Notes under the pieces: model-generated
Told to the model about the DNA's origin: nothing
Database searches by the model: none
Seen by the model: the letters and a program-made list of their open reading frames with translations, nothing else
Shown: positions 29,464 through 35,929 of the stretch, one piece after another
How the letters are laid out: each line of letters opens with the position of its first letter
Numbering within the stretch: the first letter of the stretch is position 1
NCBI GenBank assembly: GCA_015486015.1
Contig: WFSL01000024.1
Span: 41,780 to 105,779, forward strand
Source of the DNA: Aquificota bacterium
GTDB taxonomy: Bacteria > Thermosulfidibacterota > Thermosulfidibacteria > Thermosulfidibacterales > B14-G1
Length of the DNA stretch: 64,000 bases
Reading direction: 5' to 3'
Program-made: the position numbers and the translations under genes

Positions 29464-31398
29464 TCACTTCTTCTCTTCGAAGTCTGCGTCTACTACCTCG
29501 CCCTCTTCTACCTTTTCTCCTTGCCCTGATGTCTCTCCACTGGTGCCTCCGGCACTGCTGGCCTGTGCCTGTTGCTGGTAGAGGGCTTGGGCAATCTTGT
29601 GGGAGATGCCGGTGATCTCCTCGGTTGTCCTCCTGAGGTCTGCAAGTACAGCATCTATTTTAGAGGGATCCTGTATGGAGGCACTCTCTTCTAAGGTCTT
29701 CTTCGCCTTGGAAAGCATCTCCTCTGCAGTATGAAGGTCTGAGACTGGAATCTTCTCTCTGTTTTCTTGGATGGTCTTTTCTATGGTGTAAACGAGGCCA
29801 TCTAATTGGTTCCTTGCCTCTATCACCTCTTTGCGCTTTCTGTCTTCTTCTGCGTGCTTTTCGGCCTCTCTCACCATCTGATCTATCTCCTCCTGTGAGA
29901 GGCCGCTGCTGGCTGTTATGGTCACCTTTTGTTCTTTTCCTGTGGCCATATCCTTAGCAGAGACGTGGAGGATGCCGTCGGCGTCTATGTCGAATGTGAC
30001 CTCGATCTTGGGTACACCTCTGGGGGCAGGAGGTATCCCGTCCAAGTGAAACCGGGCCAGGGTCCTATTGTCCCTGGCCATGGGCCGCTCACCCTGAAGC
30101 ACGTGTATCTCTACGCTGGTTTGATTGTCCGTGGCTGTGGTGAAGATCTCAGCCTTCCTTGTGGGGATAGTGGTATTTCTGGGGATGAGTACCGTGCTAA
30201 CACCCCCTAATGTCTCGATGCCTAATGAAAGAGGTGTGACATCGAGTAAGAGGATATCCTTCACCTCCCCAGTGAGAACACCTGCCTGGACCGCTGCCCC
30301 CAGGGCCACAGCTTCATCGGGATTGATATCCTTTCTGGGTTCTTTACCGAATATCTCCTTCACCTTTCGCTGCACTGCGGGTATTCGAGTAGAACCCCCT
30401 ACCAGGATTACCTCGTCGATGTCAGCTGGTGTGAGTTCTGCATCCTTCAGCGCCTGATGACAAGGTTCCACGGTGCGCTCTATGAGGTCTGCCACTAAGG
30501 CCTCAAACTTGGCCCTGGTCAGCTTCATAAGAAGATGTTTTGGGCCGCTGGCATCGGCTGTGATGAAGGGGAGATTGATCTCCGTCTCCATCACTGAAGA
30601 GAGCTCGCACTTGGCTTTCTCTGCCGCCTCTTTGAGCCTTTGCATGGCCATGGGGTCCTTGGAGAGGTCAATACCCTGTTCCTTCTTGAATTCGTCGATA
30701 ATCCAATCAATGATACGTTGATCAAAGTTATCACCCCCAAGGTGGGTATCGCCATTGACGGCCTTCACCTCGAATACACCTTCACCGACCTCAAGGATAG
30801 AGATGTCAAAGGTACCCCCTCCCAGGTCATACACGGCGATTTTCCCACCCTTCTTCTTGTCCAATCCATAGGCCAAGGCGGAGGCAGTGGGTTCGTTGAC
30901 CAACCGGAGCACTTCCAAACCTGCAATCTGACCAGCATCCTTGGTGGCCTTCCTCTGTGAGTCGTTAAAGTATGCAGGGACAGTAATAACGGCCTTCTCT
31001 ACCTTTTCTCCTAAGTAGGCCTCTGCCGCCTCTTTGAGCTTTCTCAAGACCATGGCAGAGATCTCCGGCGGAGAATAGAGCTTTTTAGCTACGTCCACCC
31101 TCACATCACCGTGGGGTCCCTTAGCCACTTTGTAGGGCACCATCTTTATCTCTTCATGCACTTCTTCAAAGCGGCGCCCCATGAACCTTTTTATAGAGAA
31201 CACGGTGTTTTCTGGATTTGTTACCGCCTGCCTCTTGGCCACCTGACCCACCAGGATCTCCCCATCCTTGGTGAAGGCCACTACAGATGGGGTGGTCCTT
31301 CCCCCCTCCTGATTGGGTATCACGCGGGGCTCACTCCCCTCCATTACGGCGACCACAGAGTTGGTGGTACCAAGATCAATACCTATCACCTTGCCCAT
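29464..31398 (-). CDS. dnaK: Molecular chaperone DnaK (Hsp70)
   Basis: [17 protein letters not shown] and [11 protein letters not shown] signatures across a full-length Hsp70 with an acidic C-terminus. Confidence 0.95.
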
Positions 31399-31430
31399 AT
31401 CTCCATCCTCCTGTGGTTTTTCTGGAGGGA

Positions 31431-31459
31431 AATATAATTTTTGAGTCTTTTAATGTCAA
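31431..31459 (-). promoter_or_regulatory. Candidate sigma-70 promoter of the dnaK operon (TTGACA-17-TATATT)
   Basis: On the minus strand, TTGACATTAAAAGACTCAAAAATTATATT ends about 33 nt upstream of the dnaK ATG. The spacer contains ACTCAA, half of a HAIR-like motif. Confidence 0.45.
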
Positions 31460-31606
31460 TATTCTTGATTTTAATTATTGCAACTAAGTGCACTATTTAC
31501 CTGCCGATCCCTTTGATCCCAGATTTCGGCTTGCTGGCCGCCTGTATCCCTGTAGCCCTTTGCCTCGCCTGAGCCACTTAGGGCAGCTCAAGTGAAGCCT
31601 TTCAAT

Positions 31607-32395
31607 TTATTCAGGGGGGTGCCCAGAATCCCCCTTCCCAGATATGAACGCCCTGAAAATCTCCATGGGTATGGGAAGTACCAGGAAGGTGGACCTTTCT
31701 GATGATACCTCCATGAGGGTTTGCAGGAATCTCAGTTGCAGGGCTGTGGGGTGCTTCTCAATAATTTCTGCCGCAGAGGTGAGAGTCTGGGCGGCCTGAT
31801 ATTCTCCTTCGGCGCTGATGATTTTGGCCCTCCTCTCACGCTCTGCCTCAGCCTGACGCGCCATGGCCCGCTGCATATCCGCAGGCAGGTCAATATGTTT
31901 CAGCTCCACAGTGCTTACCTTGATCCCCCACGGGTCCGTATGCTCGTCCAGGATCACCTGGAGTTGACTATTGATCTTTTCTCTCTCTGCTAAGAGCTCG
32001 TCCAATTCGTGTGCACCGAGTACGCTTCTCAGTGTGGTTTGGGCCAATTGTGAGGTGGCACCCATGTAGTCCTCTACCTCTATCACCGCCTTCTCAGGAA
32101 TCACTACCCTGAAGTAGACCACAGCGTTCACCTTTACCGAGACATTGTCCTTTGTGATCACATCTTGGGGCGGTACATCCAGGACTATGGTCCTGAGGCT
32201 CACCTTTACCATCCTGTCTATCACAGGAAGGAGTATGATGAGGCCTGGCCCCTTGGTGGCTATGTACCTCCCCAATCTAAAGATCACCCCTCTTTCATAC
32301 TCCCTTAGGATCTTGATGATAGAGGCAATCACAATGAACGCAAAGATAAGCAGGAGAATAAAAGAGACCCCGTACGGCAAAGACTTCATTACCAT
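31607..32395 (-). CDS. SPFH / band-7 (stomatin-like) membrane protein
   Basis: N-terminal TM helix, then [12 protein letters not shown] and a PHB domain, then a coiled coil ([15 protein letters not shown]). Confidence 0.85.
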
Positions 32396-32447
32396 TGTTC
32401 ACCTCCTAAGAAAAACCTATGGCTTCAAGTGGAATCTATTGTGTTTA

Positions 32448-33017
32448 TCATTGCAATTTTTTTAATAGCCAAGCCATATTTTCTCCCAGTATCTCCAAGG
32501 TCTTCATGCCCTCCTCATCTTTGACCATCTCCCCGGGCTCCCCTCCGAAACAAAAGTTCCAGTAATTGGAGCAGGGGATGATCATCTGATTCAGGGCAAA
32601 CAAGGAGTTGATTTGATTAAATGTGCCTACGGCCCCGTGGCGCCTAACAGTTATCACCGCTGCCCCTACCTTCCTCTTGAGCTTGTAGCCGCTTCCCATG
32701 GAGCATAGGCCTACCCTATCTATAAAGGCCTTCACTTCGGAAGGGACCCCCGCAAAATAGACAGGAGAGCCTATAAGAATGCCCTGGGCCTGGTAGATCT
32801 TTTTTAGCCATGAATTTAGCACATCCTTTTGGGAACAAAACCCTTCTTTCTTTTCAAAGCAGTAAAGACAAGACATACATGGTTTGATTCCTGACCCACC
32901 TAACTGAATAAGCTCAGTCTCAATCCCTTCGCCCTCTAATACATTCATCACCACCCTCAAGGCAGCAGCCGTGTTTCCACCTTGCCTGGGGCTACCATTG
33001 AAGGCCAGCACCTTCAT
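32448..33017 (-). CDS. Iron-sulfur flavoprotein / NADPH-dependent FMN reductase family
   Basis: MKVLAFNGSPR..GNT flavodoxin-like N-terminus plus a compact Cys cluster (CMSCLYCFEKKEGFC) typical of Isf-type proteins. Confidence 0.75.
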   Translation of the reverse strand: MKVLAFNGSPRQGGNTAAALRVVMNVLEGEGIETELIQLGGSGIKPCMSCLYCFEKKEGFCSQKDVLNSWLKKIYQAQGILIGSPVYFAGVPSEVKAFIDRVGLCSMGSGYKLKRKVGAAVITVRRHGAVGTFNQINSLFALNQMIIPCSNYWNFCFGGEPGEMVKDEEGMKTLEILGENMAWLLKKLQ

Positions 33018-33072
33018 ACCGTGTACCCCCTTGGATTTTGAGCATGCTGTATCTTGATAAGGCCTGAAGGCT

Positions 33073-33273
33073 TTAGTCCCTCACCATAGGGGTCCCGCAC
33101 TGGGGGCATTTCACCTGAAAGCAAGGCATCCCTCTCTGATGAGGTACCCTGTTACCACAATTTGGGCATACACAGTAACCGCCGGGTCCCCTGCCCATCC
33201 CTCTTCCACCACCCATACCACGCCCTCCACCTGTACCGCGTCCACCTCCCATGCCTCCACCAGCTTTTTGCAT
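33073..33273 (-). CDS. Small Gly/Arg-rich protein with a C-terminal rubredoxin-like zinc ribbon
   Basis: 66 aa. The N-terminus is GGGMGGGRGTGGGRGMGGGRGMGRG repeats; the C-terminus has two CPxCG knuckles (CPNCGN, CPQCGT) plus two extra Cys. A GGAGGTG RBS lies immediately upstream. Confidence 0.55.
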   Translation of the reverse strand: MQKAGGGMGGGRGTGGGRGMGGGRGMGRGPGGYCVCPNCGNRVPHQRGMPCFQVKCPQCGTPMVRD

Positions 33274-33653
33274 TTTAGCACCTCCATTTGAGTAAAGTCA
33301 CTGAAGATAAGGAAAGGCATGAAACGGTGAAAATCAAGGGGCGAGAAGGGATTTACGTGCAATCCACTTTTGTTAATGGAGAAAATCCTGAAGTCTATAG
33401 GGGCCTTAGGCCTTAAAAGGAGAGGTAGAGTGAAAACTGAACTCGGCCTTTGTGAAACCTCGACGAGAGGCAAGCCTGTTTTAAGTAAGCAGGCATATCT
33501 CAAGGACTCTTTACATGATCTCAGGGTATATTTTGGACCTTGAGAACAAAACTGAAAACAGTGATGTGGTCGTTGACATTGGGATCTTGCTTTTGTATCT
33601 TTAATGAGTGAATGTGAGGGAAAGAACGTATTGACGAAAGGGGGTGAGCAGAT

Positions 33654-34034
33654 ATGAGGAGACTTGTGGCAGTTTTGTTGGGTGCAGTGCTTCTTATGGG
33701 GGCAATAGCGATAGTCACAGCGGCTGAGGTGAATAAGGGGGCCGCAACCTACACCATTGACAAGTGCAAGGAGAGGAAATCTGCCGTTACCTTCCACCAT
33801 TATCAGCATCAGAATATCCAGGGTGTTACCTGTAAGACCTGCCATCATAAGATGGTGGAGGGTAAGACTCCCAGGGCCTGTTTCGAGTGCCACCAGTGCA
33901 AGAAGCAGGGCAAAATTCCCAGTGCAAGGATGGCCTTCCACAAAAACTGCAGGGGTTGTCACCGCACTATGAAGAAAGAAGGGAAAAAGACTGGTCCTAC
34001 AACCTGTTCGGGGTGTCATCCTAAGCAGAAGTGA
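33654..34034 (+). CDS. Tetraheme cytochrome c3 (class III)
   Basis: Signal peptide, then four CxxCH heme motifs (CKTCH, CFECH, CRGCH, CSGCH) with interspersed His in about 100 mature residues. Confidence 0.85.
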   Translation: MRRLVAVLLGAVLLMGAIAIVTAAEVNKGAATYTIDKCKERKSAVTFHHYQHQNIQGVTCKTCHHKMVEGKTPRACFECHQCKKQGKIPSARMAFHKNCRGCHRTMKKEGKKTGPTTCSGCHPKQK

Positions 34035-34051
34035 GGCGGGAAGTGTGTTTA

Positions 34052-34088
34052 GGGGTAAGGTTTAAATGGGCCTTACCCCTTTTGTTGT
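34052..34088 (+). terminator. Rho-independent terminator after the cytochrome c3 gene
   Basis: Perfect 9-bp stem GGGGTAAGG/CCTTACCCC with a 10-nt loop, followed by a TTTTGTTGTT run. Confidence 0.7.
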
Positions 34089-34225
34089 TATACTGCCAAG
34101 GGTAGGTGGATTGGGGATGAAGGCTTGCGGAGATATATAGGGTTTAGGCCGGGTAATCTTACTCTCGAAGGGGTGGTTTGTTTCTCTTGAAAAGCAGAGA
34201 GAATGGTCTATATTGACCACCAATT

Positions 34226-35929
34226 ATGGGGAGGCTCGACCCAGACATTTTAGAGGAGATCAAGGATAGGGTAGACATAGTCCAGTTGATCTCTCGGTAT
34301 GTCCCTTTGAAGAGGGCGGGGAAGAATTTCAAGGCTCTTTGTCCTTTTCATAATGAAAAGACCCCTTCCTTCTCTGTGAGCCCTGAGAAGCAGCTTTTTC
34401 ACTGCTTTGGCTGTGGGGTCAGTGGTGATATCTTTCAGTTCCTTATGAAAATGGAAAATCTCACTTTTACAGAGGCCTTGGAGCTGCTGGCCCAGGAAGC
34501 TGGGGTTAAACTCCCTACTTTGCCTCGGGGCTCTGCAAGGAGGGATCGATTGTACGAGCTTCACGAGGAGGCTACTCGTATATTTCATAGGCATCTCCTC
34601 TCTCCTGAGGGGGTCTTAGCCAGGGAGGTGGCGTTAGCTCGGGGTATGGGCCCTGAGGCGTGGGACCGTTTCTCCATAGGGTATGCCCCTGATGATTGGG
34701 ATCTCCTTAGGGAGGAGCTGAAGGCGAAGGGCTTCTCAAATGAGGAGATGGTTTCCGTGGGCTTCTTAGGAGAAAGGGAGTGGGGAGAGCCGTATGTGAA
34801 GTTTAGGCATCGTCTAATGATCCCTATCTGGGATGCGAAGGGCAGAGTAGTGGCCTTTGGGGGAAGGGCTTTGGATCATGCCCAGGAGCCGAAGTATCTG
34901 AATTCCCCTGAGCATTCCCTTTTTAAGAAGGGGGATGTCCTTTATCCCTATCATCTTGCCAGAAAGAAGATAGGGGAGATGGGGTATCTTCTCCTGGTAG
35001 AGGGTTATATGGATGCCATTACTTGTCACCTGAATGGGTTTCCAAATACTGTTGCTGCCATGGGCACCTCTCTCACCTCTTCGCAGGTCCAAAGGATGGT
35101 TAGGCTTTCCAAGGAGGTGTTTTTGGCTTACGATGGTGATGAGGCGGGGCGTAAGGCTGCTATACGCTCAGCAGCCCTGTGTTTTAAGGTAGGGGTAATC
35201 CCAAGGCTGCTTCTCCTCCCAGATGGGGAAGACCCTGACAGTTTTATAAGGGGTAGCGGTTCGGCGTCCTTTGCGGATTTGGTGGCTCAGGCTGAGGATG
35301 TGATTCTCTGGTTCATGGAAGATAAGGCGAGGATGTATGACCTAACTCATCCCAGGGCCCGTGCCCAGTGGCTCACCGAGGTGGTGGAATTCTTATCACC
35401 CTTGGAGGATCCCCTCCTCTTGGAGTCTTATCTCTCTGAGGCAGCATCGAGGGCTGGGGTTACCCTTGAAGCATTGAAGGCCAAGCTCCATGGCAGGGGA
35501 TCTTCGGCCCCCAGAGGTACTTCTCTTTCAGGTTCCTGGGACATCCTTTATTTGGCCTTGGCCCTTACCCGAAGGGAGTGGTGGTCCAGTTTTGATGGAA
35601 AGGGTCTGAGGGACCCTAAGGCCTTAGAGCTTTGGGAAAAGATGAAGGAGGAGGCAGATCCTTCCCTGGCGCTTTCTTGTTTGGACGACGATGAGAAGGC
35701 CCTGTTGGTGGGCAGGGCTATGGAGGTGCCATGGGAGGATATGGAGGAGGTGTACCAAGGGTGCAGCAAGAGGGCCATGGGGCGCTTAATGGAAGAGGAG
35801 GCTAAGGCACTGAAGAGGAGGATGCGGGAGATTAAGGAGGAGGAGCGGATTGAACTCCTCAGGAGGTACATGACCCTGATGAGGAGTATAAAGGGGTTAA
35901 AGGAGGAAGGCCTTTATGAAACCCATTGA
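34226..35929 (+). CDS. dnaG: DNA primase
   Basis: CHC4 zinc ribbon ([13 protein letters not shown]...CFGCG), TOPRIM domain (EGYMD...DGDEAG). Classic position upstream of rpoD. Confidence 0.92.

Follow-up and report, generated by a model that had tools for sequence, protein, structure and literature searches.

A widespread, uncurated family of small Cys6His proteins with a cationic Gly/Arg tail, associated with iron-sulfur systems of anaerobes

The 66-aa miniprotein described here is one copy of a very widespread family in which a Gly-rich cationic tail precedes a Cys6His knot. The module is repeatedly and strongly associated with Di-Nase/MinD-Fer4 iron-sulfur systems, both by gene neighbourhood and by domain fusion. 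The gene lies in a 64-kb stretch of DNA, which we call the window when the stretch is meant at its whole length, and the window copy is an orphan that is atypical of the family. An initial annotation, made from the sequence alone, had described the product as an unusual miniprotein; in fact it belongs to a common family that has so far not been curated. The fold class (zinc-ribbon knuckles) and the type of tail (IssA/DUF5320-like) are already known. Neither the combination of tail and knot, nor the covarying Cys pair with the His, nor the family as such is curated in Pfam or NCBIfam, and no description of the family was found in the literature within our reach. We tentatively favour, at somewhat less than an even chance, a metal-binding adaptor or carrier that would take part in anaerobic iron and Fe-S handling and that, in this genome, perhaps serves the adjacent Isf-type protein.

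The features of the locus are collected in Table 1. The 66-aa product is MQKAGGGMGGGRGTGGGRGMGGGRGMGRGPGGYCVCPNCGNRVPHQRGMPCFQVKCPQCGTPMVRD. Its residues 1-33 comprise 19 Gly, 4 Arg, 1 Lys and 4 Met with no acidic residue, and the two knuckles are CPNCG (residues 36-40) and CPQCG (residues 56-60), which with the further C34 and C51 give a total of six Cys. The (GGGRG)n tail, the two CPxCG knuckles and the two additional Cys reported in the initial annotation are all found in the 66-aa ORF, and the strong RBS that it mentioned is the GGAGGTG element of Table 1. A signal peptide is absent from the miniprotein.

Table 1. Features of the miniprotein locus, in positions of the window.
Feature	Position	Strand	Support
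SPFH/Band_7 gene, next on the strand after the flavoprotein gene	31607..32395	-	Pfam Band_7 7.6e-41
FMN_red-family flavoprotein, C47-x2-C50-x2-C53-x7-C61	32448..33017	-	Pfam FMN_red 2.2e-32
Spacer between miniprotein and flavoprotein genes, 55 nt, without terminator-like site	33018..33072	-	
Miniprotein ORF including stop codon, 66 aa, Gly/Arg tail and Cys6His module	33073..33273	-	Sequence, purifying selection, homologues
Folded module, codons 34-66, C34-x-C36-P-x-C39-G-x5-H45-x5-C51-x4-C56-P-x-C59-G	33076..33174	-	Alignment, pLDDT 87-91, C34/C51 covariation
Disordered cationic Gly/Arg/Met-rich tail, codons 1-33, GGGRG x3, net charge +5	33175..33273	-	AF2 pLDDT <50
Shine-Dalgarno GGAGGTG, 5 nt 5' of the ATG	33279..33285	-	Sequence
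Divergent intergenic region, 380 nt exactly	33274..33653	.	
Sigma-70-like promoter for cytochrome c3	33573-33601	+	
Four-haem class III cytochrome c	33654-34034	+	Pfam Cytochrom_CIII 9.4e-15, four CxxCH

The gene is real and under selection. A word-indexed protein search returned 275 homologues, all of them small and from anaerobic bacteria and archaea, and a genome scan with a 12-sequence alignment as the query located relatives in 386 or more species-representative genomes. When 1.84 billion representatives of clusters at 50% identity were searched exhaustively with a profile, 999 clusters came out with E<=1e-10, and 2,385 with the looser threshold of E<=1e-3. For 84 distinct core coding sequences of 105 nt each, mean pN was 0.253 compared with a pS of 0.854, with pN<pS in 3,486 of 3,486 pairs, and the entropies of the three codon positions were 0.74, 0.60 and 1.61, the third positions being the most variable. 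A check of homologues and their neighbours had been suggested together with the gene; it yielded the 275 relatives, the 999 clusters and the 81 loci examined below. Since there are homologues in hundreds of genomes and the ORF is conserved under purifying selection, the miniprotein is genuine, as had been proposed.

In an alignment of 121 sequences the only invariant columns are C34, C36, C39, H45, C51, C56 and C59. The family signature is CxCPxCG-x5-H-x5-C-x4-CPxCG, and the window protein has every one of these seven residues. Conservation of all six Cys, another suggested check, is complete in this alignment, and His45, which had been overlooked, makes the signature Cys6His. Module copies were also picked from all fetched proteins by their CxxC...CxxC spacing; of these 321 copies, 313 have both C34 and C51, 6 have neither and 2 have only one of them. 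We read this as a constant Cys4 site (C36, C39, C56, C59) accompanied by an accessory pair, C34/C51, which would act together, either by forming a disulfide or by contributing to a common second site. Fifteen of the 321 copies keep both Cys but have another residue, in most cases Lys or Arg, in place of His45, which argues against an obligatory ligand; the His would be helpful, not obligatory.

With the 121-sequence alignment, AlphaFold2 placed residues 31-66 at pLDDT 87-91, with short strands at 33-35 and 42-44, and left residues 1-30 disordered at pLDDT 48-49. Two parts of the initial annotation agree with this model, namely the disordered Gly/Arg N-terminus and the Cys-rich C-terminal domain, for which a confident fold is predicted around the conserved knuckles and the extra Cys. 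The term rubredoxin-like, on the other hand, was not supported. Pfam and NCBIfam scans of the window protein gave no model at cut-off and only sub-threshold, generic zinc-ribbon hints; the best NCBIfam hint was rubre_like_arch with 15.5 bits against a cut-off of 32, and rubredoxin (PF00301) did not match in Pfam at E<=1. Rubredoxin is a domain of about 50 aa that has a redox-active Fe(Cys)4 centre and an aromatic core, its knuckles being separated by some 29 residues, whereas the 16 residues between C39 and C56 represent a zinc-ribbon-like spacing. The Foldseek matches of the module were all zinc-ribbon or rubredoxin-knuckle proteins, the top ones being weak (E>=0.4) and including the desulfoferrodoxin N-domain, rubrerythrin and rubredoxins. 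Pfam zinc-ribbon models gave sub-threshold matches in 99 of the 121 members at a permissive E<=0.01. When compared with zinc ribbons and rubredoxin-type domains (Zn_ribbon_3, desulforedoxin, rubredoxin), the family has two CPxCG knuckles, probably on short beta-hairpins, in common with them, but adds the conserved C34, H45 and C51 (C34/C51 covarying) and the cationic leader.

As defined by us, the family has in front of its Cys6His module a leader of some 20-60 residues that is cationic, rich in Gly and poor in acidic residues, and the window tail fits this definition. Taking the tail as the 33 residues preceding C34, the family averages 46% Gly, 12.7% Arg and 1.8% Asp+Glu, with a mean net charge of +4.3. 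Many members start with MPRGDGTGPxGxGP, which is the opening motif of DUF5320; PF17253 (DUF5320) is matched by 12 of the 121 members, and hhalign aligned the family with DUF5320 over 21 N-terminal columns (probability 75%, E 2.5e-5). The Gly-rich cationic leader is common to both, with MPRGDGTGPxGxGPxTGRG up to the conserved Cys in many members. The continuation is different: in DUF5320 the leader is followed by a Gly/Arg/aromatic stretch and, at the C-terminus, a coiled coil (the neighbouring DUF5320 proteins end in a coiled-coil-like EQE..LK.QA..L...L..I..RI.ELE), whereas the miniprotein family ends in the Cys6His knot. The window protein starts with MQKAGGGMGGGRG, without the MPxGDxTGP...GRGxGxC motif of DUF5320 and without a PF17253 match, and PRGDGTGP does not predict ORP context (Fisher p=0.12). 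Tails of the GRGW/GMGRG type are also found in neighbouring DUF5320 proteins and in several Di-Nase proteins.

Neighbourhoods were compared at 81 loci, consisting of 80 non-duplicate fetched motif-bearing loci and the window. ORFs were called and then classed by HMMs seeded from Pfam-labelled genes, within five genes of the member. The most frequent neighbours are MinD/ParA ATPases, mostly with ferredoxin inserts (57/81 loci), and NifX-like Nitro_FeMo-Co ('Di-Nase') proteins (48/81), followed by DUF5320 (37/81), MBL-fold (17/81), Zn_ribbon_8 (13/81), FUR (12/81), DUF134 (11/81), NifU_N and Radical SAM (10/81 each) and DtxR/FeoA (4/81). A NifX-like or MinD gene occurs within five genes at 61 of the 81 loci, and the usual one-strand order is NifX, member, MinD, MinD. 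According to the available text of PMC6345978, the ORP cluster of Desulfovibrio contains the MinD-like Orp3 and Orp4 with two [4Fe-4S] motifs and the Di-Nase Orp8, and MrpORP, which joins Mrp and Di-Nase, passes Fe-S clusters to Orp3/4. Judged by domain types, the family's usual neighbour set corresponds to this anaerobe-specific ORP (orange protein) cluster, as both have ferredoxin-motif MinD-like ATPases, single-domain Di-Nase proteins and Mrp+Di-Nase fusions. The five ORP components in the available text of that paper do not include a small Cys6His protein, and within the literature in our reach we found nothing on DUF5320, DUF134 or UPF0251 that is relevant to the family.

The window departs from this pattern, which is frequent in the family but not general to it. 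Locally built HMMs detected no ORP-type cluster family, Di-Nase and MinD-Fer4 included, over the 64 kb, and PadR and DUF134 genes are absent there too. The closest relatives (L001, L017, L002/L060, L040 and L024) also lie outside ORP clusters, where the member stands alone or follows a PadR gene and a gene for a DUF5320-like 103-aa protein. The ORP association is consequently transferred to the window copy from more distant members.

Fusions were counted in the best 149 representatives of the profile search, which comprise 87 stand-alone proteins of <=110 aa, 37 proteins of 111-250 aa and 25 longer ones. A Di-Nase domain is present in 18 of the 149 and DUF134 in 5. The simple architecture of Di-Nase, Gly/Arg linker and module is seen in P0209, P0232 and P0233. 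At the fetched loci, DUF134(HTH)-module fusions occur in L046, L054, L063, L084 and L090 (Pfam DUF134 at 1e-27 in L046 and 3e-19 in L054). Other partners are ferredoxin (L033, Pfam-confirmed), a dicluster ferredoxin (P0160), an RnfB-type FeS domain (P0141), rhodanese with Di-Nase (P0127), PDZ (P0164, P0231), trypsin with PDZ (P0133, P0150) and a phage XkdF-type protease (P0223, P0252). The N-terminus of L045 looks NifX-like but has no Pfam match, which makes this a putative fusion. To judge from these architectures, the module is mobile.

The top-scoring representatives are long proteins with 2-5 modules of the Cys6His or Cys4His form. P0121 (1,430 aa) has an apparent N-terminal membrane helix followed by two PDZ domains, three Di-Nase domains and five modules, and in P0133 (980 aa, from Ca. 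Riflebacteria) a pair of modules precedes the trypsin and PDZ domains. Both lie within magnetosome gene clusters, where their neighbours are MamI (PF26391), LemA, Cation_efflux, trypsin, MreB-like, PDZ+MCR and FeoB; from the Pfam labels we take LemA to be MamQ-like, Cation_efflux MamB/M-like, MreB-like MamK-like and PDZ+MCR MamP-like. In Desulfovibrio magneticus RS-1, FmpB combines magnetochrome, PDZ and NifX/NifB, and its loss lowers the number of magnetite particles (PMC4287615). The large module-bearing relatives have architectures equivalent to FmpB and MamE (PDZ with Di-Nase, or trypsin with PDZ), but they carry Cys-rich modules where FmpB has the CxxCH haem-binding magnetochrome. The window protein differs from them in being soluble and single-module, in a region without magnetosome genes, and its module contains no CxxCH, the haem motif that magnetochrome carries in pairs. 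No paper on the module in magnetosome proteins was found within our limited literature reach.

The single precedent for the tail that has been studied is IssA of P. furiosus, which consists of a Di-Nase domain and a disordered cationic Gly/Arg-rich tail. In the model proposed for it, the tail wraps chains of anionic thioferrate within a particle that stores iron and sulfur (PMC5524996). A disordered, Gly/Arg-rich, high-pI, Cys-containing tail is common to IssA and the miniprotein family, and both are tied to Di-Nase (IPR003731/PF02579), the family by the 48/81 neighbourhoods and 18/149 fusions given above. The differences are that the IssA tail is C-terminal, rich in aromatic residues and Pro, and without a zinc-ribbon knot, and that a Di-Nase domain is absent from the window protein.

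At the window locus, the adjoining gene on the same strand codes for a protein with both features of Isf, an FMN_red/flavodoxin-like fold and a compact Cys motif, the compact [4Fe-4S] motif of ISF being CX2CX2CX5-7C (PMC3164229). No Isf structure was matched by sequence to this product, and its exact look-up gave no record, though the gene list of L094, a locus of the near-identical assembly discussed at the end, has a 189-aa FMN_red gene. The sole terminator-like site within 31300-34300 is at 34051-34080 on the + strand. As the short spacer between the two genes is free of such a site, the miniprotein and the Isf-type flavoprotein are likely co-transcribed, and they are probable operon partners in this genome only: an FMN_red gene is paired with a member at none of the 80 other loci. 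Band_7 is found near a member only in the window and in L001, the closest homologue, among the 81 loci, and dnaK comes next after the SPFH gene.

On the other side, the 380-nt divergent region shared with a tetraheme cytochrome c3 gene was correctly described from the start, in its exact length and in the identity of the cytochrome. Rfam has no element anywhere in the window, this region included, and the Fur-box and sigma-54 matches in it are no better than those of shuffles. The functional tie to cytochrome c3 that had been proposed found no support. A c3-like gene occurs within five genes of a member at only 2 of the 81 loci, the window counted, and the N-terminus of the cytochrome is signal-peptide-like, which that of the miniprotein is not. 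An exported-looking cytochrome with its own promoter is an unlikely direct partner of a cytoplasmic miniprotein, and the position beside it is incidental.

In the adaptor/carrier reading that we favour, the cytoplasmic miniprotein would be composed of a disordered cationic Gly/Arg tail and a zinc-ribbon-type knot of about 33 residues. The knot would bind a metal ion, either Fe or Zn, and may possess a second, partly open Cys2His site, while the tail could contact anionic partners electrostatically, either iron-sulfide species or the acidic surfaces of proteins. The miniprotein would serve as an adaptor or carrier beside Di-Nase (NifX-like) proteins and MinD/Mrp-type Fe-S ATPases, and as a 'tail + Cys module' in a protein of its own it would parallel the IssA-like proteins. 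The window copy appears to have left the ORP-type cluster, and the Isf-type [4Fe-4S] flavoprotein is a plausible local client or partner.

The DUF134 HTH fusions and the adjacency of PadR, FUR and DtxR would fit a regulatory role equally well. As a sensor or co-regulator, the Cys6His module would sense metal, Fe-S or redox and signal to a DUF134 HTH or PadR partner controlling ORP-type genes, and the free-standing protein would correspond to the sensor half of the regulators in which DUF134 and module are fused. The DUF134 fusions, those at the five loci and those in 5 of the 149 representatives, point to this role, as do the loci with DUF134 (11), FUR (12) or DtxR/FeoA (4) near a member and the order of PadR, DUF5320-like 103-aa protein and member in the subclade of the window. 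We nevertheless consider it unlikely, if by no means negligible, in view of the Di-Nase and MinD genes, not regulators, that flank most members; HTH fusions are also fewer than those with Di-Nase, PDZ, protease and ferredoxin, the window lacks PadR and DUF134 genes, and multi-copy modules in membrane-anchored magnetosome proteins are hard to square with a transcription sensor.

Two further explanations start from the two halves of the protein. A rubredoxin-like one-electron carrier, in which the Cys4 site would bind Fe and shuttle electrons with the Isf-type flavoprotein or other redox partners, an idea close to the redox-type metal site of the initial annotation, is distinctly improbable: no rubredoxin model matches, in knuckle spacing and size (about 33 residues) the module is like a zinc ribbon, a simple carrier would have no use for the long cationic disordered tail, neither the Isf nor the cytochrome c3 adjacency is conserved, and the cytochrome is apparently exported whereas the miniprotein has no signal peptide. 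It would account for the two CPxCG knuckles, the weak Foldseek matches to the desulfoferrodoxin N-domain, rubrerythrin and rubredoxins, the ferredoxin and FeS-domain fusions, the adjoining flavoprotein gene, and the modules found at the place of the redox-active magnetochrome in magnetosome proteins. The tail, for its part, had been read in the initial annotation as an RGG type that mediates RNA binding or condensate formation, and its Gly/Arg composition would suit a nucleic-acid-binding or condensate-forming zinc-ribbon protein associated with RNA or the ribosome. Generic resemblance to the zinc ribbons of ribosomal proteins and RNA polymerase and some automatic JGI names ('ribosomal protein S26', 'RNA-binding Zn-ribbon protein') point the same way, but these zinc-ribbon matches are sub-threshold, no translation or RNA-processing genes recur near a member, and the tail motif is specifically common to DUF5320 and the IssA-like Di-Nase-tail proteins of iron-sulfur clusters. 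The comparative data do not favour the RGG explanation, and we hold it to be very improbable.

How strict anaerobes handle Fe-S clusters, with the ORP complex, IssA-type storage and Mrp/MinD carriers, is understood only poorly, and the family adds to this system a very common, uncurated small component with a clear signature. The occurrence of the module beside Di-Nase genes, fused to Di-Nase and in tandem in magnetosome-cluster proteins provides a concrete, testable link between Fe-S cofactor trafficking and iron biomineralisation. The magnetosome and IssA links are the most worth following. A bolder proposal, which we regard as rather unlikely, is that the Cys6His knot is an unrecognised iron-binding or redox domain for iron(-sulfide) handling. 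The free miniprotein and Di-Nase would then nucleate, cap or mobilise thioferrate-like Fe-S stores, and the tandem copies in PDZ/Di-Nase and MamE-like proteins would replace the magnetochrome haems as the magnetosome iron redox module of deep-branching magnetotactic bacteria.

Finally, the gene call in a near-identical assembly was compared. The window DnaK is 100% identical to a protein of GCA_027077485.1, and its nearest named relatives are from Thermosulfidibacter takaii (80%) and Thermosulfidibacteraceae MAGs. The DNA of GCA_027077485.1 equals that of the window across the miniprotein ORF, but the collection's gene call there (L094 4112-4288, corresponding to window 33111..33287 on the - strand) is in the wrong frame. 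It starts at an ATG inside the RBS of the true gene, and its product is without homologue-like features. An exact look-up of the miniprotein gave no record, and we account for this by the wrong-frame call, owing to which the real protein is missing from the collection. Gly-rich (GGN)n miniproteins of such kind can drop out of protein databases. In the window itself, a longer ORF at 33111-34019 on the - strand overlaps the miniprotein gene; it is antisense to the cytochrome gene and was rejected as spurious. The predicted tryptic peptides of the miniprotein are GPGGYCVCPNCGNR, GMPCFQVK and CPQCGTPMVR.

Throughout, the module denotes the Cys/His knot of about 33 residues (CxCPxCG-x5-H-x5-C-x4-CPxCG) found in the miniprotein encoded at 33073-33273, and its residues are numbered on that protein. 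Among 321 module copies, C34 and C51 are both present in 313, both absent in 6, and only one of them is kept in 2. The pattern was noticed in the module copies of the representative proteins P0133, P0150 and P0123; both copies of P0133, for example, have lost the two residues jointly, with Leu and Ser instead. This suggests that C34 and C51 are a functional pair apart from the Cys4 knuckle site. His45 is substituted in 15 copies, mostly by Lys or Arg.

P0133 and P0121 are long proteins with 2-5 module copies, encoded within magnetosome gene clusters next to genes for MamI, LemA, Cation_efflux, trypsin, MreB-like, PDZ+MCR and FeoB proteins. The architectures of such proteins are either PDZ, Di-Nase (the NifX-like domain) and modules, or modules, trypsin and PDZ, and the modules hold the position that is occupied by magnetochrome haems in the characterised FmpB/MamE-type proteins.

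Features at the miniprotein locus and at loci of its relatives (L-numbers)
Feature	Coordinates	Strand	Description
Wrong-frame call	window 33111-33287 = L094 4112-4288	-	58-aa product MEVLKCKKLVEAWEV...
Antisense ORF, 302 aa	window 33111-34019	-	spans cytochrome c3 gene and intergenic region, overlaps miniprotein gene
ATGT-N8-ACAT palindrome	window 33564-33579		perfect; ATGTGGTCGTTGACAT; overlaps -35 hexamer of cytochrome c3 promoter-like site
FMN_red-family gene	window 32448-33017	-	3' of miniprotein gene; C47-x2-C50-x2-C53-x7-C61
E. mobilis relative of miniprotein	L088, L089 7842-8174		C-terminal extension ..MIREELLNEKRQGRS
P0133 gene	L092 10001-12943		multi-module protein, magnetosome gene cluster
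P0121 gene	L093 8175-12467		multi-module protein, magnetosome gene cluster
Di-Nase/(GMGRG)n/coiled-coil genes	L051 6556-7164; L091 722-1351; L043 4291-4935; L073 7322-7882; L071 6999-7631

At five loci, genes neighbouring miniprotein relatives encode proteins in which a Di-Nase domain is combined with a (GMGRG)n tail and with a coiled coil; here an arrangement like that of IssA/'IssX' is joined to the C-terminus of DUF5320. Together with the GRGW repeats abundant in ordinary DUF5320 proteins, this shows that cationic Gly-rich tails are common to proteins of these clusters. Only two of the 80 relatives' loci come from cultured isolates, both strains of Ectothiorhodospira mobilis, in which two MinD genes, a NifX-like gene and a radical SAM gene come, in this order, after the gene for the miniprotein relative. 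Experiments might be tractable in this species.

The gene that the collection calls at the miniprotein locus of the near-identical public assembly GCA_027077485.1 (contig JALTGC010000136.1) is in the wrong frame: its start codon is an ATG within the RBS of the true gene, and the real 66-aa miniprotein is therefore missing from that genome's calls. The wrongly called product is the C-terminal part of the 302-aa antisense ORF, which appears to be spurious. The palindrome upstream of cytochrome c3, a perfect match reached in only 1% of shuffles, resembles PadR-type operators; PadR is a conserved neighbour in the miniprotein's subclade, and no PadR gene lies within the 64-kb window. The cysteine motif of the FMN_red-family protein is the compact motif typical of the [4Fe-4S] site in iron-sulfur flavoproteins (Isf). 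An exact look-up returned no record for this protein sequence, yet a 189-aa FMN_red gene is listed at the same place in the public assembly.

The module also occurs in other proteins. P0223 and P0252 are fusions of the module with the domain of a putative phage serine protease, XkdF (Peptidase_S78_2, about 1e-25), which suggests that phage or prophage proteins occasionally capture it. P0124 and P0135 are small proteins with an apparent N-terminal signal peptide before 2-3 tandem modules, so that some versions of the module appear to be exported.
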